Shown here one piece after another: positions 20-39,918 of a DNA stretch of 40,042 nt. The position numbers and the translations under genes were made by a program. The notes under the pieces were generated by a model. The model saw only the letters and a list, made by a program, of their open reading frames with translations, was not told the origin of the DNA and searched no databases. Source of the stretch: a virus; IMG/VR virus record IMGVR_UViG_3300045988_091053, positions 1 to 40,042 of that record, one strand, 5' to 3'. Numbering within the stretch: position 1 is the first letter of the stretch; every line of letters starts with the position of its first letter.

Positions 20-35
20 GTTGACAAAAAAGAAC
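20..35. promoter_or_regulatory. Operator O2: GTTGA-N6-AGAAC overlapping the PR -35 box
   Basis: Matches 9 of 10 half-site positions of O1 and has the same A-rich 6-nt spacer. Confidence 0.4.
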
Positions 36-49
36 GCTTGATTTATAAT
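21..49 (+). promoter_or_regulatory. Early lytic promoter (PR-like) for the cro operon
   Basis: TTGACA (21-26), 17-bp spacer, TATAAT (44-49). It lies about 50 nt upstream of the cro RBS AAAGGAGG. Confidence 0.7.
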
Positions 50-2797: not shown

Positions 2798-3904
2798 ATG
2801 CAAATTACAAGAGGAAGGAAGGCGCGAGCTCAAAAAGTCGTGATCTATGGCCCCGAAGGAATCGGGAAGTCTAGCTTTGCGAGTCAATTCCCGGATCCGG
2901 TATTCATCGATACGGAAGGGTCAACGGATAATATGGACGTGGCCCGTATGGACAAGCCTACAAGCTGGACGATGCTAAAGAATCAGATCGCGTTCATCAA
3001 GGCAAACCCAGACGCTTGCAAGACGCTCGTCATCGATACGATCGACTGGGCGGAACAGCTCGCGGTCGATTATGTTTGCGCACAACACCAGAAGAACGGA
3101 ATCGAAGATTTCGGATGGGGCAAGGGCTATACATACGTCCAAGAAGAGATCGGGCGCTTATTGAATAGCTTGAGTGAGCTAGTGGATAATGGGATCAACG
3201 TCGTTTTGACAGCTCACGCACAAATCAAGAAATTCGAGCAACCGGACGAGATGGGATCATACGACCGGTACGAATTAAAGCTCGGGCAAAAGTCAAGCTC
3301 AAAAACAGCGCCACTCGTTAAGGAGTGGGCCGATATGGTGCTCTTTGCAAATTATAAGACAATCGTCATGACAACGGACACAGGCAAGAAAAAGGCCCAA
3401 GGGGGCGAGCGTGTCATGTACACGAACCACCGCCCAGCATGGGACGCAAAAAATCGTCACGGCTTACCAGATCAGCTCCCGTTCACGTTTGAGAGCGTGG
3501 CTCATATCTTCAACGCACCGGCTCCCGTACCCGAGCAACCAGCTCCACAACCAGCTCCACAACCAGAGCCACAGCCACAACCGACACCAGAGCCACAAAA
3601 GCAAAACATTAACGAGCAATTGCAAGAGGTCGCTCAAGAGGTGGCTCAAGAGATGGGACGGGCTCCACAAGCGGGACTCTTACCACAAGCATTGGTCGAC
3701 TTAATGGCGCCTAACAACGTAACGGAAAACGAATTACAAGAGGTTGCTTATATCCGCGGACACTTCCCGATGGGGACGCCGATCGAAAACTTCCCGGCGA
3801 ATTACTGGGATATGATCGTCGCGAATTGGGACGCTACACTCGACGTCATTCAAAACCAAGTCCGGAAAGACCCGGAATTACCATTTAATACTAACAACTT
3901 ATAA
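2798..3904 (+). CDS. Sak4-like AAA_24 (RecA-fold) ATPase with PQ linker and extra C-terminal domain
   Basis: KVVIYGPEGIGKSS Walker A and LVIDTIDW Walker B. PAPQPAPQPEPQPQPTPEPQ linker followed by about 100 further residues. Confidence 0.7.
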   Translation: MQITRGRKARAQKVVIYGPEGIGKSSFASQFPDPVFIDTEGSTDNMDVARMDKPTSWTMLKNQIAFIKANPDACKTLVIDTIDWAEQLAVDYVCAQHQKNGIEDFGWGKGYTYVQEEIGRLLNSLSELVDNGINVVLTAHAQIKKFEQPDEMGSYDRYELKLGQKSSSKTAPLVKEWADMVLFANYKTIVMTTDTGKKKAQGGERVMYTNHRPAWDAKNRHGLPDQLPFTFESVAHIFNAPAPVPEQPAPQPAPQPEPQPQPTPEPQKQNINEQLQEVAQEVAQEMGRAPQAGLLPQALVDLMAPNNVTENELQEVAYIRGHFPMGTPIENFPANYWDMIVANWDATLDVIQNQVRKDPELPFNTNNL

Positions 3905-3922
3905 AAAAGGAGAAATTTCATC

Positions 3923-4480
3923 ATGACACAACAACAATATAACAACAACTTTGATCGCGAATTCGGTTGGGACGACACAATTCAAAAAGATTCTGAATTC
4001 GTCTTTTTGCCAGACGGCCTATACTGGTTCACGGTTAAGGAATACGAGCGCGGACGTCACACACCGAACCCGCAAAATCCCGGAAAGTTGCCAGCTTGTC
4101 CTAAAGCGACAGTACACCTTACTATCGTAGCGAATGAAGGCGAAACAGAACTCCGTCACAATCTCTTCTTACATAGTTCAACTGAGGGAATGTTATCAGC
4201 GTTCTTTGGAGCTATTGGGCAAAAACGTAAAGGCGAACCCCTTCGTATGGACTGGAACGCGATCATCGGAAAAGTCGGAGTTTGTAAAGTTGGATCTCGC
4301 GAGTACAACGGCAATAAATACAACGAAGTAAAAGGCATGATTTACGCCGAAGACGTGGACTATACGAAAGTATTGAACGCGCAACCGGGACAACAAGCCC
4401 CAGCGTACCAACAACCAGCGCCACAATACCAACAACCACAACAACCAGCACAGGGAGGCTTCACAGGAGGGCCGTTCTAA
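3923..4480 (+). CDS. DUF669-like phage protein (SSB-like accessory) with Q/P-rich tail
   Basis: Lies between the AAA_24 ATPase and the helicase, as is typical for DUF669. Ends in PAYQQPAPQYQQPQQPAQGGFTGGPF. Confidence 0.5.
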   Translation: MTQQQYNNNFDREFGWDDTIQKDSEFVFLPDGLYWFTVKEYERGRHTPNPQNPGKLPACPKATVHLTIVANEGETELRHNLFLHSSTEGMLSAFFGAIGQKRKGEPLRMDWNAIIGKVGVCKVGSREYNGNKYNEVKGMIYAEDVDYTKVLNAQPGQQAPAYQQPAPQYQQPQQPAQGGFTGGPF

Positions 4481-4498
4481 TATAGGAGGTTCTAAAGT

Positions 4499-6082
4499 AT
4501 GGAGTTAAGACCCTATCAACAAGAGGCGCGGGAAGCCGTTCAGAAGGAGTGGGCAGAAGGGCGAAAACGTACCCTTCTAGTCCTTCCGACTGGGACGGGA
4601 AAAACGGTCGTCTTTTCGAAAATTATTGAAGATCAAGTCCGAGAAGGGAAGCGCGTGTTAGTGCTCGCTCACAGATCCGAGTTATTAGATCAAGCAAGCG
4701 ACAAGCTAAAAACCGCGACGGGACTCGGTACAGCGCTAGAAAAAGCCGAAAGTACGTCAATAGGCTCTTGGTATCGGGTGGTCGTGGGATCTGTCCAAAC
4801 TATGCAACGTGAGAAACGCTTGAGTCAATTCCCGCCCAACTGGTTTGACGTGATCGTGGTCGATGAGGCACACCACGCTATATCTGACGGCTATCAAAAG
4901 GTATTGAATCACTTCCAAGATTCGCAAGTTTTGGGGGTAACAGCGACCCCAGACCGTGGAGATATGAAGAACCTCGGATCGTATTTTGACAGCTTGGCCT
5001 ATGAGTACTCACTTGTGCAAGCAATCAAAGAAGGCTACTTGTCCAAGATTAAGGCCTTAACGATTCCACTTGATCTCGACTTATCAAGCGTTTCAATGTC
5101 CGCGGGAGATTTTAAAGCGAGCGACGTCGGGACGGCACTTGATCCGTATCTCGTACAGATTGCGGACGAAATGGCCAAGTATTGCAAGGACAGAAAAACA
5201 GTCGTCTTTCTTCCGCTAGTAAAGACTAGCCAGAAATTCCGCGATATCTTAAACGAGCGAGGCTTTAAAGCAGCCGAAGTGAACGGCGAATCAAAAGATC
5301 GGGCCGAAGCGCTCGAAGACTTCGAAAAGGGCCGATATAATGTTCTATGCAATTCTATGTTACTCACGGAAGGGTGGGATTGCCCTTCGGTTGATTGTGT
5401 GGTCGTGTTACGTCCGACAAAAGTCCGGGCGCTCTATTCTCAAATGGTCGGGCGTGGGACGCGTCTCTTCCCCGGGAAAGAAGAGCTTCTTCTTCTCGAT
5501 TTTCTATGGCACACGGAACGGCACGAGCTTTGCCGGCCGGCTCACTTAATTTGTGAGAGTCCGGAAGTTGCAAAGAAAATGGTCGAAAACATGGAAGAAG
5601 AAACAGGCGTCGTGCTCGATCTCGAGGCTATGGAAGCCAAAAGCGCGGAAGATGTCGTCGCAGAACGTGAAGAAGCTCTTGCGAAACAACTTGCGGAAAT
5701 GAGAAAACGCAAGCGGAAACTCGTCGATCCGCTTCAATTTGAAATGTCTATCCATGCTGAAGATCTTTCAAACTATGTACCTAACTTCGGCTGGGAGATG
5801 GCTCCGCCTTCTGAAAACCAACTCAAGGCCCTCGAAAAGTACGGTATTTTCACCGACGAAGTGGGCAACGCCGGAAAAGCAAATCTATTGCTTGACCGTT
5901 TGAACAAGCGCAGAAACGAAGGACTTTCGACACCGAAGCAAATCCGCTTCCTCGAAAGTCGAGGCTTCCGCAACGTCGGAATGTGGAACTTTGAAAGCGC
6001 AAGAAATATGATCGATCGTATCGCTGCTAACGGGTGGAGAATACCGCACGGAATCAGAGCGAGCGAATATGTACCAGATTAA
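4499..6082 (+). CDS. SF2 DEAD/DEAH-box helicase
   Basis: Motifs LPTGTGKT (I), VVDEAHH (II), VTATPDR (III), QMVGRGTR (VI). Confidence 0.85.
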   Translation: MELRPYQQEAREAVQKEWAEGRKRTLLVLPTGTGKTVVFSKIIEDQVREGKRVLVLAHRSELLDQASDKLKTATGLGTALEKAESTSIGSWYRVVVGSVQTMQREKRLSQFPPNWFDVIVVDEAHHAISDGYQKVLNHFQDSQVLGVTATPDRGDMKNLGSYFDSLAYEYSLVQAIKEGYLSKIKALTIPLDLDLSSVSMSAGDFKASDVGTALDPYLVQIADEMAKYCKDRKTVVFLPLVKTSQKFRDILNERGFKAAEVNGESKDRAEALEDFEKGRYNVLCNSMLLTEGWDCPSVDCVVVLRPTKVRALYSQMVGRGTRLFPGKEELLLLDFLWHTERHELCRPAHLICESPEVAKKMVENMEEETGVVLDLEAMEAKSAEDVVAEREEALAKQLAEMRKRKRKLVDPLQFEMSIHAEDLSNYVPNFGWEMAPPSENQLKALEKYGIFTDEVGNAGKANLLLDRLNKRRNEGLSTPKQIRFLESRGFRNVGMWNFESARNMIDRIAANGWRIPHGIRASEYVPD

Positions 6083-6101
6083 AAAAATGAGGAGAAACAC
6101 A

Positions 6102-7736
6102 ATGAAAACTAACAAATTAACACTTTTGACAGTTGCAACAATTGCGACAGCGACACTTGGAATTAAGGGAGTAAATGCCGATGAGTCTGATCGAGGAATC
6201 ACGCCAGAGACAACAACAATTGCAACAAACCAAAGCGGAGAAGCAAGCGGAACTGAATCAGCTATTCCAACAACGAAAGCAGATCAACCGTCAAATTCTG
6301 GAAATGCAACGGGAACAGGAAGCGCTGAAGCTAAGAATAACGAACGAGAAGGACTTCCAACAAGTTTTGAAAAGAGCGGGAATGTGATTGAAGTCAAGAA
6401 TCCGGAAGTCGTTGTCGATCAGTCAAACGGCACAGGAAAGTATCAACCTTTTAGCGTGGAATATAAGAACGTACACTTCCCGGACGATCTCACGATCAAC
6501 GAAGGGGACAAAGTGACGTTTACCCTTCCAAAAGAAGTCGCTTTTCAAACGAGCTTCACGTTTGATGTACACAATCCAGAAAACGCCGTTGTCGGTCAAG
6601 CTACCGCAGACAGCACAGCCGGCACAGTTACGACCGTATTCAACGACTATTTCAAAAACCACCCACTAAACAAGCAAATGAGCCTTAAGCTCGACGCAAA
6701 ATGGACCGATAAAGTCGAGAGTGGCAAACCAGTAACCGCGAATTTTAACGGCACAGTCGTAACGGCTCAAATCGGCAAAGAGCAAGTGATTGGAAAAGAT
6801 GAACTCCTTTCCAAGTGGGGGAGCCAAGATGAAAATGACCCGACAGTCATCAACTGGACTGTACGCGTCAATTATGCGCGAAAAGTCTTGAATTACGTTA
6901 AATTGATCGACACAATGAGCGAAAATCAAAAGTTAGTTGATAACTACTTTGAAATCAAGAATATTGAAAGCGTTGATCCTTGGATTGACAAAGGATCTGC
7001 AATGGATCTTGTTAAATCAATCAGTAAGAGCGATCACGGCTTCGAGATCACTATGGACCGCTTGGATCATATGATCTATCTTTATTACAAGACCAAACTA
7101 ACAAACGCGGTCAAAGACAGCACGAATCCAACAAATAAGGTCGAACTCAAGGCTGAAACTGACGGAGCTATTTCATATAGTTACGTTCAACTTGTCGGAG
7201 GGCGTGGAGACGCTTCGGGCGAAAATAAACCCGCTCCAGTCTTTGAAATTCCGAATGACGCTCCTAAATACGAAAAACCGTCAATCAACATCGAAGATAT
7301 TCCGCTTATGCCTCCGGCTCCAATCCTTGATAAACCAGAATGGAAGGGCGGTACAGTACCGTTTGACGCTCCGCAACTTGACAAGCCAGAATGGCAAGGT
7401 GGGGTAACACCTCCGGACGCGCCAATATTGGACAAACCGGAACTAGTGATCGATATTCCAGAGCCTAAACAAGATAAACCAAACACACCAAACGAAACAA
7501 CTGACAAGCCAAACACGCCAGCGCCAAAAGAAGCGCCAAAAGTCGAAGAAGTGAAAATCACTAATCGTGTGGAAAATCACGCGAAAATCACGCGAAACGA
7601 ATCCGAAGAAACAGTCGAAGCGTACAGCGCACCGGCTACACTTCCTAATACGGGATCAGGATTCGGAATCGCGATCAGCCTCCTCGGACTATTGGGATTG
7701 AGCCTTGGAATTGCAGCAACGAAGAAAGAAAACTAA
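6102..7736 (+). CDS. LPXTG cell-wall-anchored Cna/MSCRAMM-like surface adhesin
   Basis: Start set at ATG 6102 after GAGGAG. Signal peptide MKTNKLTLLTVATIATATLGIKGVNA. Collagen-binding-type motifs (VTFTLPKEV, INWTVRVN). Pro-rich DAPxLDKPEW repeats. LPNTG (7641-7655) followed by a hydrophobic helix and KKEN. Confidence 0.8.
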   Translation: MKTNKLTLLTVATIATATLGIKGVNADESDRGITPETTTIATNQSGEASGTESAIPTTKADQPSNSGNATGTGSAEAKNNEREGLPTSFEKSGNVIEVKNPEVVVDQSNGTGKYQPFSVEYKNVHFPDDLTINEGDKVTFTLPKEVAFQTSFTFDVHNPENAVVGQATADSTAGTVTTVFNDYFKNHPLNKQMSLKLDAKWTDKVESGKPVTANFNGTVVTAQIGKEQVIGKDELLSKWGSQDENDPTVINWTVRVNYARKVLNYVKLIDTMSENQKLVDNYFEIKNIESVDPWIDKGSAMDLVKSISKSDHGFEITMDRLDHMIYLYYKTKLTNAVKDSTNPTNKVELKAETDGAISYSYVQLVGGRGDASGENKPAPVFEIPNDAPKYEKPSINIEDIPLMPPAPILDKPEWKGGTVPFDAPQLDKPEWQGGVTPPDAPILDKPELVIDIPEPKQDKPNTPNETTDKPNTPAPKEAPKVEEVKITNRVENHAKITRNESEETVEAYSAPATLPNTGSGFGIAISLLGLLGLSLGIAATKKEN

Positions 7737-7755
7737 AAAGGAATAGAGGGGACTA

Positions 7756-10032
7756 ATGGAACGAGAATTTGACCTATTACCATTGTTAGACCATATAGAC
7801 CCCTCGATTCTGTCTTATCAAGAATGGATAAACGTCGGAATGGCCTTAAAACACGAAGGGTACACGGCCTCAGATTGGGATAATTGGTCCTTACGAGATC
7901 CGGCCCGGTATCGTAAATTTGAGTGTTTCAAAAAATGGGACACTTTCAACGAAGAAGCGGGCTCGATTGTTACGGGCGGGACGATTGTCCAGCTTGCGAA
8001 AGATCACGGCTGGGTGAATCCGTACTCAAGCGATAGTGAGGGCGCTCATGAACTCGACTGGAACGATACCATCGATCGAGACTATCGCGTCATTGATAAG
8101 AACTGGATCGAGGGGAAAGAGATTCACGAGCCTACAAACTGGAACCCAGTACAAGAGATTATCAAGTACCTAGAGGCCTTGTTTGAATCGTCCGAGAATG
8201 TCGGTTATGTTACTGAGTCATATCCAAAAGTAAACGACGAAACGGGCGAAATAGAGAAATGGCTTCCGACTAAGGGGGCGTATGACCGGACAGCGGGGCA
8301 ACTAATCGAGCAATTATCCAAGTGTAACGGCGATATTGGGGCGGTCCTCGGGGACTATCACAAGGAAGCGGGCGCGTGGATTCGCTTCAATCCGCTCGAC
8401 GGTAAGGGCGCGAAAAATGAAAACGTGACTGAATTCCGCTATGCCCTCGTTGAGTCAGACAGCATGAGCATTGAGAAACAAAACGCGATCTATAAGGAAC
8501 TAGAACTTCCAATCGTGGCCCTTGTCTATAGTGGGAACAAGTCCTTACACGCTATCGTAAAGGTAGACGCGGGCAATTATGACGAATACAGAAAGCGCGT
8601 CGACTACTTATATAAGATATGCCAAAAGAACGGAATATCAGTCGATACACAAAACCGCAATCCGTCGCGCTTGTCCCGTATGCCGGGATTCGAGCGAAAC
8701 GGCCAGAAACAATTCCTCGTTGATACCAATATAGGAAAAGCCAACTGGGAAGAATGGTACCAGTATATTGAGGACTTAAACGACGATCTTCCAGATCCGG
8801 AAGGACTGGGCGATAGTTGGGACAACCTTCCAGAGCTTGCGCCCGAGCTGATCGAAGGAGTCCTTCGCCAAGGACACAAAATGCTGATCGCTGGGCCGTC
8901 CAAGGCTGGGAAGTCGTTCAGCTTGATCGAAATGTCAATCGCAATCGCAGAAGGCCACAAATGGCTTGAGTGGAAGTGTACACAAGGCAAGGTCCTATAT
9001 GTCAATCTTGAGTTGGATCGCGCGTCATGTTTGCACCGCTTCCGCGACGTGTACGAAGCAATGGGACTTCAGCCTAACAACTTACAAAATATTGATATCT
9101 GGAACTTGCGCGGAAAGACTGTACCGATGGATAAGCTCGCTCCGAAATTGATCCGCCGATCCCTCAAAAAGAACTATATAGCCGTCATTATTGACCCGAT
9201 CTATAAAGTCCTTACGGGTGACGAAAACAGCGCGGATCAAATGGCACACTTTACAAACCAATTTGACAAAGTGGCGACAGAGCTCGGGTGCTCGGTTATC
9301 TATTGCCACCACCACTCAAAAGGTGCTCAAGGGGGCAAGAAATCAATGGATCGGGCCAGTGGTTCGGGCGTATTCGCTCGAGATCCGGACGCGTTGATCG
9401 ACTTGGTTGAATTGGACGTCACAGAAGAATTACTCACGCAACGGATCAATCACACAGCCACTAGGATATACAAAGAGGCCTTACAAACGTGTAACCTTGG
9501 ATATTACCAAGAGGAAGTAAGCCTCGACGATCTCCAAAGTCCCGTGATTATGCGGACACACTTCGAACAAGCGATTCCAAACGTGCTCGAGCGTAAGCCG
9601 TGGACAGATAAGATAGAACAAGCCCGTCGAGCGATCGAAATATCGACAGCGTGGCGCGTGGAAGGAACGCTTCGAGAGTTTGCCAAGTTCAAGCCTATCA
9701 ATATGTGGTTTAGCTACCCAGTACATTTTCTGGACGATTCGGGCGTACTTGCTGATATCCAACTCGATGATACAAACGGGAACAACTCTCCATGGAAGAA
9801 AAATTTCGACAAAAAAGAGACAAAAGAAGATAAAAGCGAAAAAGTCGAAAGCGCTATTTACTCAATCTATGATGGAATCAATCCAGTTACAATAGATGAT
9901 CTTATCGAATATTTTTCGACAGATTCGAGACAAGTAAGTGAAAAAACAGTCCGTCGATGGATCAAAAATAATGGCAATTTTACAATTAAAAATAAGGAAA
10001 TATCGCCAAAAAATGACGAGGGACAAAAATAG
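7756..10032 (+). CDS. Bifunctional primase(-polymerase)/AAA_25 replicative helicase-type protein
   Basis: PriCT-like N-terminus (YQEWINVGMALKHEG...WDNWS), prim-pol-like SGNKSLHAIV, Walker A GPSKAGKS, Walker B VIIDPIYK. Confidence 0.75.
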   Translation: MEREFDLLPLLDHIDPSILSYQEWINVGMALKHEGYTASDWDNWSLRDPARYRKFECFKKWDTFNEEAGSIVTGGTIVQLAKDHGWVNPYSSDSEGAHELDWNDTIDRDYRVIDKNWIEGKEIHEPTNWNPVQEIIKYLEALFESSENVGYVTESYPKVNDETGEIEKWLPTKGAYDRTAGQLIEQLSKCNGDIGAVLGDYHKEAGAWIRFNPLDGKGAKNENVTEFRYALVESDSMSIEKQNAIYKELELPIVALVYSGNKSLHAIVKVDAGNYDEYRKRVDYLYKICQKNGISVDTQNRNPSRLSRMPGFERNGQKQFLVDTNIGKANWEEWYQYIEDLNDDLPDPEGLGDSWDNLPELAPELIEGVLRQGHKMLIAGPSKAGKSFSLIEMSIAIAEGHKWLEWKCTQGKVLYVNLELDRASCLHRFRDVYEAMGLQPNNLQNIDIWNLRGKTVPMDKLAPKLIRRSLKKNYIAVIIDPIYKVLTGDENSADQMAHFTNQFDKVATELGCSVIYCHHHSKGAQGGKKSMDRASGSGVFARDPDALIDLVELDVTEELLTQRINHTATRIYKEALQTCNLGYYQEEVSLDDLQSPVIMRTHFEQAIPNVLERKPWTDKIEQARRAIEISTAWRVEGTLREFAKFKPINMWFSYPVHFLDDSGVLADIQLDDTNGNNSPWKKNFDKKETKEDKSEKVESAIYSIYDGINPVTIDDLIEYFSTDSRQVSEKTVRRWIKNNGNFTIKNKEISPKNDEGQK

Positions 10033-35444: not shown

Positions 35445-36335
35445 ATGAATCGCTCAAACTGTACAAACTTAAAGCAGTTTGAGGGCGGTCGAGTCGTCAA
35501 GCAGGGCGACTCAGCCTCCCTTTTTGGCTTTGCATTATATGACGAAAACTGGGTTCCGATTGACCTTGACGGGCAAGAGGCTACAATCCATTTTGTAAGT
35601 AAAAAAGGCAAAGCGACGTTTAGCGCTACTGTCCAAGGCTCGAAGGTATCGTTTAAGATTCCCAAAGTCTTGCCAGTCGAGAGCTATCTTGTCGAGGTTG
35701 ATTGTGCCGGGTACGTATTCCCAAGTGACCAGAGCGTCCGAGTTGATGTGGTTCAGTCAGCGGAGGAATACCAGCCGACAGAAGTGGTCGAGCTTGGTAA
35801 GATCAGCTTGCGCGATGAGATCGCAAACTATCTTGCTGGACACACTTTACAAGCGTATAATGACAGCCCACTAGTCGCACGGATCGAAGCACTCGAAGCA
35901 CGGCCACAAGTTACAACGGTCGATCTGGGGCCGTTAGAAAGTCGATTACAATCGTTGGCCCTATCGGTTCAAGCCTTGGAAAATAAACCAGCTCCGACGG
36001 TTCAAACGCTCGATTTAGGACCGCTAGAAAAGCGCGTGGAAGCCTTGGAAAACAAGCAGGCACAAACAGCCCCAGTGGTTGACTTGAGTGCGTATATGAC
36101 CTCAGAAATGGCTTATCAGACGTTTGCGACGTATGCCACGTTACAAGATAAAATGACTAATAACATTAAGAATAAGCACCTTGAGCTTGGCCTTGACGCG
36201 CTGATCGACGAGAAACTGAGGAACGGTGGCGATAACTTCCTTACTAGCCACCAAGCCAGCACGGCTTACGTGTCAAAAGAAGTGTTTCAAAACTTGCTGA
36301 AACGTGTCGAAGTACTCGAATCAGTTCCTATATAA
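35445..36335 (+). CDS. BppU-like Ig-domain + coiled-coil fibre protein encoded after the lysis cassette
   Basis: N-terminal beta-rich domain (GRVVKQGDSASL...). Tandem DLGPLE(S/K)R..ALENK repeats. Last gene before the late terminator. Confidence 0.45.
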   Translation: MNRSNCTNLKQFEGGRVVKQGDSASLFGFALYDENWVPIDLDGQEATIHFVSKKGKATFSATVQGSKVSFKIPKVLPVESYLVEVDCAGYVFPSDQSVRVDVVQSAEEYQPTEVVELGKISLRDEIANYLAGHTLQAYNDSPLVARIEALEARPQVTTVDLGPLESRLQSLALSVQALENKPAPTVQTLDLGPLEKRVEALENKQAQTAPVVDLSAYMTSEMAYQTFATYATLQDKMTNNIKNKHLELGLDALIDEKLRNGGDNFLTSHQASTAYVSKEVFQNLLKRVEVLESVPI

Positions 36336-36503: not shown

Positions 36504-36809
36504 ATGACAAAAGTAAACGCAACTATTAAAACAGTAGCAAAAGAACTTGCTGAAAATATCGGCTGGGACGGCATGGAATTTTATCTCAAACAAGACGGTG
36601 AAACTGGGGCTCGTCAAAGTGGAAGTTTTGGCCCAGACGAAAGCGAAGTAGTGTATAAAGTATCGCTTGGCAAATGGTACTGGAGAGATGGCTTGGAAAA
36701 CATCGGCCTTAATATTGAAAAATTAAATGAAGAAGATCTTGAAACGCTTGCCGATTATCTCGAAGAATTTGAACTTGGTGAAGAAGATTTCGAATGGGAA
36801 GAAAACTAA
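36504..36809 (+). CDS. Highly acidic 101-aa protein (candidate DNA mimic / anti-defence protein)
   Basis: By my count 26 D/E versus 9 K/R. The C-terminus is EEDLETLADYLEEFELGEEDFEWEEN. Confidence 0.6.
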   Translation: MTKVNATIKTVAKELAENIGWDGMEFYLKQDGETGARQSGSFGPDESEVVYKVSLGKWYWRDGLENIGLNIEKLNEEDLETLADYLEEFELGEEDFEWEEN

Positions 36810-39889: not shown

Positions 39890-39918
39890 ATTATAACACC
39901 GTTCCGAAAAAAGTACAA
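39890..39918 (-). promoter_or_regulatory. Lysogeny promoter (PL/PRM-like) for the repressor operon
   Basis: The minus strand reads TTGTAC, 17-bp spacer, TATAAT. It lies about 25 nt upstream of the repressor RBS AAAGGAG. Confidence 0.6.
39901..39916. promoter_or_regulatory. Operator O3: GTTCC-N6-AGTAC inside the PL spacer and -35 box
   Basis: Degenerate copy of the O1 motif with the same spacing and an A-rich spacer. Confidence 0.35.

Follow-up and report, generated by a model that had tools for sequence, protein, structure and literature searches.

The stretch of DNA analysed here, hereafter the window, is a 40,042-nucleotide (nt) viral sequence (IMG/VR record IMGVR_UViG_3300045988_091053) that constitutes a complete, circularly permuted temperate siphovirus genome, its ends cut inside the genetic switch. 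Between a helicase gene and a primase gene it carries an intact open reading frame (ORF; 6102..7736, + strand) of 544 amino acids (aa) plus stop, which encodes a predicted wall-anchored adhesin of the MSCRAMM (microbial surface components recognizing adhesive matrix molecules) class, and within the N-terminal part of this gene a second, small ORF (6175-6387, + strand) runs in the +1 frame. A Shine–Dalgarno (SD) sequence, AGGAG (6090-6094, + strand), lies 7 nt 5' of the adhesin ATG, a layout matched in phage Javan311. The gene is separated from each neighbour by 19 nt (helicase stop codon at 6080-6082, primase ATG at 7756), as the initial annotation of this locus had measured.

The protein begins with a predicted signal peptide (MKTNKLTLLTVATIATATLGIKGVNA; 6102..6179, + strand) with n-, h- and c-region features and V and A at positions -3 and -1, whose putative cleavage site falls between VNA and DE; the region is conserved among homologues and its codon-position variability is normal for the adhesin frame (0.193 at position 3, 0.020 at position 1). 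A hydrophilic, low-complexity linker (aa 27-95; 6180..6386, + strand) leads into two immunoglobulin (Ig)-like domains. The first (aa 88-222; 6363..6767, + strand), equivalent to Cna N1 or Clf/Sdr N2, matches Pfam Big_8 above the gathering cut-off (aa 118-204, E 1.5e-12), and the second (aa 223-375; 6768..7226, + strand), equivalent to Cna N2, matches Collagen_bind, also above the cut-off (aa 234-347, E 4.7e-13). The strings VTFTLPKEV (aa 138-146) and INWTVRVN (aa 250-257), which had been read from the sequence as a collagen-binding-type signature, do lie inside the Big_8 and Collagen_bind matches, respectively. Domain 1 also contains TVTTVFNDYF (aa 175-184; 6624..6653, + strand), in which T177, T178, F180, N181, Y183 and F184 are invariant among 16 diverse homologues, and which we take to be similar to the 'TYTFTDYVD' latching-cleft motif of MSCRAMMs. 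At the end of domain 2 sits an RGD tripeptide (7203-7211; KGD in many alleles), conserved in 36 of 36 close and 15 of 16 diverse homologues, which may serve in binding to integrins or platelets or may merely belong to the latch region.

The two domains are followed by a proline-rich, presumably wall-spanning stalk (7227..7640, + strand), two stretches of which match the SIALI-17 repeat (NCBIfam NF043031) at 38.1 bits against a curated cut-off of 30. NCBI applies the same repeat name to relatives of the adhesin, copy number differs among alleles, and the length polymorphism is visible in two of our alignments (A1 and A3). The proline-rich repeat region described initially is real, but of its three DAPxLDKPEW-GG copies the third reads DAPILDKPELVI and is without the W-GG. 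The C terminus is a sorting signal (7641..7733, + strand) in which LPNTG (7641-7655) precedes a 22-residue hydrophobic stretch, SGFGIAISLLGLLGLSLGIAAT, and KKEN, all as annotated; L, P, T and G of LPxTG are invariant in the homologues. Among the Pfam domains that had been expected, Collagen_bind was found, Gram_pos_anchor scored below threshold (see below) and Cna_B repeats gave no match in the search of the adhesin, the SIALI-17 repeats forming the stalk instead. B repeats are typical of Cna and Cnm and are not needed for membership of the MSCRAMM class. The adhesin has no match in PHROG.

We modelled the protein with AlphaFold2. A first model of the full-length adhesin, built on a shallow alignment (36 sequences, ∼88% identity), reached a pLDDT (predicted local distance difference test score) of 32. 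Remodelling of aa 80-375, with the alignment deepened by a divergent clade reached via a homologue of the type found in phage CJLB-5, gave two all-beta domains at a pLDDT of 91.6 and a pTM (predicted template modelling score) of 0.81. When this model was compared with the Protein Data Bank (PDB) using Foldseek, the top matches were all two-domain MSCRAMM ligand-binding regions (E 1e-17 to 1e-13, identity 12-17%), namely Cnm (8jl8), SdrG, ClfA, Bbp, Cna (2f68, TM 0.69), SdrE, ClfB, RspB and Ace; the best of these (Cnm, SdrG, ClfA, Bbp and Cna) reached E∼1e-17 with TM scores of 0.6-0.69. The sole viral protein with the same fold in BFVD is a 'Clumping factor' of a metagenomic siphovirus. The model thus predicts two tandem IgG-like (DEv-IgG) ligand-binding domains and, together with the profile matches, supports assignment of the adhesin to the MSCRAMM class, as originally proposed. 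The narrower proposal of a collagen-binding type is upheld for the fold, which is Cna-like, and not for the ligand: collagen is not established as the ligand, since the predicted fold fits the fibrinogen-binding Clf/Sdr proteins as well as it fits Cna and Cnm.

Selection on the gene was estimated as the ratio of nonsynonymous to synonymous substitution rates (dN/dS; NG86 method) across 29 collinear backbones. The ratio was 0.042 for the helicase, 0.055 for Sak4, 0.083 for the primase and 0.144 for the adhesin as a whole. Within the adhesin, the Big_8 (0.04) and Collagen_bind (0.06) domains are on a par with the flanking helicase and Sak4; the signal peptide gave 0.06 and the proline-rich repeats 0.16. 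These values clearly point to an adhesin that is functional and maintained by the phage lineage. One segment departs from this pattern: aa 27-95 gave a ratio of 1.63 (dN 0.166, dS 0.102), in which dS is strikingly low, 0.10 against ∼0.8 elsewhere.

The helicase–primase junction as an accessory slot

The adhesin gene is polymorphic in its presence. In Javan311, from Streptococcus mitis B9, an adhesin 84% identical to that of the window occupies the same site between helicase and primase, whereas in Javan377, 380 and 381 (S. parasanguinis), which share the backbone, the junction is empty and measures 14 nt, in agreement with the suspected insertion. In a census of 72 helicase-primase backbones from IMG/VR the junction was empty in 30, held an adhesin in 23 (9 of which also carry a methyltransferase or a ∼232-aa gene), held other cargo (C5 and other DNA methyltransferases, HNH-like genes) in 18 and held the small ORF alone in 1. 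The junction (6083-6101 and 7737-7755 in the window) is a hypervariable accessory slot and not an inviolate part of the operon. Cargo seen in it (loci L109-L184) includes a ∼400-aa C5 DNA methyltransferase, methyltransferases of ∼250 aa and HNH-like proteins of 170-210 aa; for the ∼232-aa gene that follows the adhesin in some slots, the label Mom-like is only a guess.

Nor is the family confined to this junction. In oral streptococcal phages at least six further types of replication module have adhesin homologues, always co-directional with their neighbours, in their early operons: in IMG/VR they follow a DNA-binding protein, SSB, primase or RusA gene; in SA-TP2 and YMC-2011 they stand between Ant/helix-turn-helix (HTH) genes and replication or recombination genes; and in Javan535 the adhesin is upstream of the whole replication module. 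All 80 IMG/VR loci have the adhesin co-directional with, and tightly packed against, early genes. The position inside a replication operon, which had been considered unusual, is therefore recurrent in this family across many streptococcal backbones. The family is also large, with 7,996 of 8,000 scored candidates being relatives (many on ∼40-kb contigs), nearly each of the best 120 forming its own 90% cluster, and at least 164 IMG/VR contigs encoding a relative. Hosts named in genome records are mostly S. parasanguinis, one strain of which (OMI650) holds two different adhesin-bearing phage genomes (L092, L093), one on a 40-kb contig that may be extrachromosomal or a complete phage. An LPXTG MSCRAMM is also encoded at 5929-7359 of a record attributed to Campylobacter jejuni ('Campylobacter phage CJLB-5', MW057932.1; L007); all of its close relatives come from streptococci (S. 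panodentis, S. sanguinis, Streptococcus sp.), and the host attribution looks wrong.

In the window the early operon runs AAA_23 protein, Sak4, phrog_2698 protein, DEAD helicase, adhesin, primase and RusA. The upstream neighbour is a DEAD/ResIII-type DNA helicase (4499..6082, + strand; Pfam ResIII 4.5e-36, Helicase_C; phrog_16 4e-108) and the downstream neighbour a primase/AAA_25 replicative helicase-primase (7756..10032, + strand; PriCT_2, AAA_25; phrog_2597). Packaging, head, tail and lysis genes follow, all genes between 101 and 36809 being on the + strand; the minus strand carries an integrase gene and a repressor pair of the ImmA/HTH type. Two + strand ORFs without Pfam matches, 35445-36335 (296 aa) and 36504-36809 (101 aa), occupy the classical 'moron' position between lysin and integrase.

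A consensus sigma-70-type early promoter (TTGACA-17-TATAAT, 12/12 match; 21..49, + strand) lies upstream of a cro-like gene, and we infer it to be the source of the transcript that carries the adhesin. Consensus scans of the + strand found no sigma-70-like site in 3190-6937 and no extended -10 in 5342-7875, neither type was found 5' of the adhesin in the window, Javan371, YMC-2011 or Javan535, and no terminator-like hairpin was found 3' of the adhesin in the window, in keeping with the initial annotation, which had seen no flanking promoter or terminator. Since the gene is without a promoter or terminator of its own and its co-orientation with early genes is constant, transcription together with the replication genes is most likely and is our default reading of the sequence. 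The adhesin gene resembles a 'moron' in one respect and not in another: presence/absence polymorphism among collinear phages is evident (Javan311 versus Javan377, and the 72-backbone census), whereas promoter-like and terminator-like sites were not found and the flanking gaps are 19 nt. Other signals recorded were a strong hairpin with a 13-bp stem (341-370), between the cro-like and next early gene, which has its T-run on the minus strand and forms a leftward-facing terminator-like element where the early operon begins; an extended -10 (TGTTATAAT; 39890-39898, minus strand) on the repressor side, divergent from the promoter at 21-49, the pair straddling the window ends; and, in Javan371 (L003 9563-9578), a + strand terminator-like hairpin right after the adhesin stop codon, unlike the window.

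An alternative, which we regard as doubtful, is that the adhesin is a classical lysogenic-conversion factor, made in the lysogen through an internal promoter or by leaky or read-through early transcription and aiding colonization. The presence/absence polymorphism and mosaic allelic diversity of the family resemble those of colonization factors, and in the S. salivarius clade the copies follow directly on the genetic switch and have a long stretch of intergenic DNA before them. Tissue binding and biofilm structure are both promoted by the collagen-binding MSCRAMMs encoded on the S. parasanguinis chromosome (PMC7565896), and prophage-borne LPXTG proteins are known, such as SasX in staphylococci (PMC7047976). 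However, no more than 12-30 nt separate the gene from its upstream neighbour in the window and in most of the 80 loci, the gene is deep in an early lytic operon with no promoter-like site found, the slot is also used by methyltransferase and HNH genes, which act in lytic growth, and the adhesin lies away from the lysin–integrase 'moron' position. In S. salivarius phages YMC-2011 and Javan535 we also observed a conserved hairpin (GCACAGGCCCTTACCTGTGC followed by T6, minus strand) directly 5' of the adhesin (L006 5860-5879 and L004 4693-4712); these alleles have a long N-terminal signal-peptide extension and are without the nested ORF.

Early expression at the surface would also suit superinfection exclusion or receptor masking, in which the protein blocks further phages or the re-adsorption of progeny to debris, by analogy with Llp of T5 or the Ltp lipoprotein of S. 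thermophilus phage TP-J34. Surface superinfection-exclusion proteins are established in streptococcal temperate phages (PMC3952083), and the high allelic diversity of the adhesin might track receptor or phage diversity. We nevertheless consider this function unlikely: the exclusion proteins known so far are made in the lysogen as lipoproteins or membrane proteins, whereas here a predicted ligand-binding MSCRAMM fold sits on a long proline-rich stalk, distant from the wall and not where receptors would be masked, and its binding domains are highly conserved (dN/dS ∼0.05) rather than diversifying.

A small ORF in the +1 frame of the adhesin linker

The anomalous segment of the adhesin, aa 27-95, coincides exactly with the +1-frame ORF (6175-6387), on which the initial annotation had been silent and which is open in 29 of 29 sequences. 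It comprises 70 codons from the ATG at 6175, or 68 from a conserved ATG at 6181, and ends in a TGA (6385-6387); its Q/K/E/L-rich product, of ∼8 kDa, is predicted from composition to be helical. An open +1 frame was dropped as evidence for a gene after a resampling null gave P=0.76 given the composition of the linker, a hydrophilic linker being open in this frame by chance because +1 stops need NTA or NTG codons in the adhesin frame.

The substitution pattern is informative. Variability in the adhesin frame follows the order position 1>position 2>position 3 in the overlap (for example, 0.154/0.087/0.059) in four separate allele groups, whereas in the Ig domains position 3 far exceeds position 1 (0.305 versus 0.066). 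Segregating sites at positions 1, 2 and 3 number 42, 27 and 25 in the overlap against 72, 41 and 235 in the Ig domains (chi-square p=7e-12). Read in the +1 frame, codons of the overlap are least variable at the second and most variable at the third position, and dN/dS is 0.18 in this frame as compared with 2.01 in the adhesin frame and 1.24 in the third. Two control adhesin clades without the ORF have normal linker periodicity. These data indicate purifying selection on the small ORF in its own frame, as in a nested or overprinted gene. Moreover, given the small protein sequence the adhesin frame would stay open by chance in only 1.8% of cases, which argues that both frames are maintained. What appears as the variable N-terminal region of the adhesin is best read as a dual-coding linker.

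The nested ORF also has what look like translation signals of its own. An SD-like AAGGGAG (6165..6171, + strand) is formed by Lys-Gly-Val codons in the c-region of the signal peptide, and the start ATG arises from the GAT-GA of the signal-peptidase site (A, then DE). In 81 of 81 unique motif-bearing alleles GGAG or GGGG from the Gly-Val codons is present, the Gly codon being GGA or GGG and followed by G in every case, whereas GGA plus GGG account for 48% of the Gly codons of the genome; the ATG, 8-10 nt further 3', is present in 80 of the 81, yet GAT is 44% of Asp codons. Six types of small protein, 13-49% identical to one another, align gap-free at 68-73 aa, with start, length and stop conserved.

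A profile search for the small protein returned 106 proteins with lengths of 39-97 aa, the majority being of 67-73 aa. When 1.84 billion representatives were searched exhaustively with a hidden Markov model, no more than 28 clusters emerged, every one of them short, and tblastn matched Javan311 alone among phage records. Gene callers had detected the ORF in two situations only, when an assembly gap interrupted the adhesin gene and when the adhesin was absent. Three database proteins (P0148, P0165, P0221), from contigs of up to 40 kb, start as adhesin signal peptide and linker and then switch to the small-protein frame; they may be natural frameshift variants or indel errors.

Free-standing occurrence is demonstrated only for the D-like and E-like types. 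D-like copies stand alone between helicase and primase on the window's own backbone (L103-L105, L173), and free-standing homologues are found in other early regions (L099-L102, L106-L108). E-like copies are ordinary free-standing early genes, located after RusA/HTH genes or genes following SSB and 5' of a 119-aa gene, which resembles, by size and position alone, the 119-120-aa ORF after the adhesin in E-type loci. Alignment of L103 with the adhesin-bearing L049 limits the difference to ∼90 nt of signal-peptide coding sequence and the ∼1.2-kb adhesin body, with breakpoints at the short microhomologies AATTAA and GAAA(A/G). In L099 and L101 decayed signal-peptide codons 1-9 remain 5' of the free-standing gene (z=4.8, p<=0.003), and from these remnants we infer that at least these copies descend from the embedded state. 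A neighbour-joining tree of the Ig domains did not polarize gain or loss of the nested ORF, since the N-terminal modules are mosaic. The small gene appears to be a lineage-restricted orphan family, which is consistent with birth by overprinting in the linker.

Could the nested ORF be no gene at all, its pattern arising instead from an RNA or DNA element, from recombination or from diversifying selection on the adhesin N terminus? The compositional openness of the +1 frame would allow this, and so would two further results: identity between types is saturated and low in all three frames, and hence uninformative, and comparison of the small protein with PHROGs and Pfam returned coiled-coil noise only, with no detectable family or predicted function. 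We judge this explanation distinctly unlikely, as the periodicity matches a coding +1 frame exactly in the four allele groups and not in the two ORF-less clades, the low dN/dS is peculiar to the +1 frame, the gap-free conservation extends across all six types, and the ORF stays intact and free-standing after deletion of the adhesin, with signal-peptide remnants upstream. Least tenable, and highly improbable in our estimate, is that the adhesin is a decaying passenger from the host chromosome without function for the phage: it is absent from two-thirds of otherwise identical backbones, but ∼90 independent alleles are intact, the domain dN/dS of 0.04-0.06 contradicts pseudogene decay, LPxTG is invariant, and the gene is spread over many phage backbones, the 11 of 11 genome loci recovered being prophage-like with no close chromosomal source found.

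Proposed explanation and known systems

We propose that the adhesin and the small ORF together make up a mobile accessory cassette of two genes, which occupies a hypervariable slot in the early operon of a temperate siphovirus infecting oral streptococci, an account to which we assign a probability of roughly 60%. The host would be mainly S. parasanguinis, with related phages in S. mitis. Upon infection or prophage induction, the adhesin would be transcribed from the early promoter alongside the replication genes, exported via Sec and cut after VNA, and host sortase A would link it covalently to peptidoglycan through LPNTG; export, cleavage and anchoring are proposed on the strength of what is established for Sec export and sortase A. 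The proline-rich stalk would extend the two-domain Ig-like head, whose ligand, a peptide or a protein, may be bound in the dock-lock-latch or the collagen-hug manner; candidates for it are host matrix, salivary pellicle and the surface of another cell. Within what is a disordered linker in the adhesin, a ∼68-aa helical and probably cytoplasmic protein would be translated in the +1 frame from an SD and ATG of its own. Its retention where the adhesin is lost argues that it has selective value of its own.

The benefit that we favour is that an infected or induced cell is tethered or aggregated, such that burst or lysogenization occurs amid new hosts, while adhesin-carrying wall fragments would stay in the biofilm. 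This benefit, or one in which adhesin-bearing debris aids kin lysogens in the manner of PblA/B of phage SM1, is conjecture by analogy, and it is the first of several points that weigh against the account. Gram_pos_anchor (PF00746) scored 16 bits on the C-terminal 45 aa, below the cut-off of 20, and because of this the sorting-signal assignment for this allele rests on the motif, its invariance in homologues and the PF00746 matches on record for relatives. Sequence and profile searches of the PDB with the adhesin found no match, and identity to solved MSCRAMMs is only 12-17%. Consensus scans may miss real promoters, and a candidate weak site (CGATATAAT at 5333) lies inside the helicase gene; homologues of the S. 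salivarius clade have 200-350 nt of intergenic DNA upstream, where independent expression is possible. Finally, apparent free-standing copies of the window's own small-protein type (P0122, P0128) proved to be artefacts of N-gaps in scaffolds. A bolder version, in which the adhesin acts as an early-lytic, sortase-anchored 'aggregation substance' for the benefit of the phage and not of the lysogen, and its linker gave birth de novo to a small gene that later escaped to a free-standing state once the surrounding adhesin had been deleted, we put forward tentatively, as possible and no more. If true, it would be a rare, datable case of gene birth and emancipation in a double-stranded DNA (dsDNA) phage.

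The adhesin by itself is of a kind already known, prophage-borne LPXTG proteins having been described (PMC7047976), and GenBank already labels the proteins of Javan311, YMC-2011 and SA-TP2 as LPXTG or collagen-binding. In our literature search no study dealt with these phage adhesins. Judging from the literature that could be searched, three elements are new: that the adhesin is placed systematically within early operons of many different phage backbones, that the helicase–primase junction serves as an accessory slot, and that the linker is dual-coding, with a nested gene able to become free-standing. Oral streptococci such as S. parasanguinis, S. mitis and S. salivarius are pioneer colonizers and agents of endocarditis whose adhesins decide their habitat. 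A very abundant phage-borne MSCRAMM family means that an adhesive phenotype can move horizontally, and adhesion may be switched on by prophage induction rather than being constitutive, a logic different from that of classical lysogenic conversion. The nested gene provides a clean example, with strong statistical support, of dual coding by a temperate dsDNA phage, and its embedded, free-standing and absent states in otherwise collinear genomes make the origin and independence of overprinted genes directly tractable. It also exposes a blind spot of annotation, the small ORF being overlooked by gene callers when the adhesin is intact.

Compared with known systems, the adhesin is closest in layout to Cna of Staphylococcus aureus, Cnm of S. 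mutans, Ace of Enterococcus faecalis, SdrG and ClfA, with which it has in common two Ig-like domains, a stalk and an LPXTG anchor, besides a predicted signal peptide and a putative TYTFTDYVD-like motif. Cna, Cnm and Ace are 'collagen hug' MSCRAMMs, and the Clf/Sdr proteins are of the 'dock-lock-latch' type. The phage adhesin differs from both in its low identity (12-17%), in a SIALI-17 rather than Cna_B stalk, in being an early-operon phage gene and in its dual-coding linker. SasX/SesI, an LPXTG surface protein carried on a phiSPbeta-like staphylococcal prophage, is linked to colonization (PMC7047976). It is like the adhesin in being prophage-carried and sortase-anchored. SasX, however, is not known to be a two-domain MSCRAMM adhesin, and it is placed as accessory cargo and not within a replication operon. 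PblA and PblB of S. mitis phage SM1 are phage proteins that reach the bacterial surface and mediate platelet adhesion, coupled to lysis of a subpopulation; both belong to the virion tail and, after lysis, attach to choline on the wall. The adhesin, by contrast, appears from its sequence to be a dedicated Sec- and sortase-dependent protein outside the virion.

Nested and overprinted genes are a general phenomenon in phages and other viruses (PMC8227390, PMC6188560). As in Rz/Rz1 of lambda, the nested ORF is a small gene, complete and with a start of its own, that is contained in the +1 frame of a larger one, both frames being kept. Rz and Rz1, however, are lysis partners, whereas the nested ORF is retained where the large gene has been deleted, which points to independent function, and, unlike Rz/Rz1, it occupies the disordered linker that connects the signal peptide of a secreted protein to its first folded domain. 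A parallel in logic may be Asa1/PrgB, the aggregation substance of enterococcal conjugative plasmids, an LPXTG adhesin that is co-expressed with the transfer or replication programme of its element and joins donor to recipient. The parallel would be one of function only, as both the fold and the type of mobile element differ.

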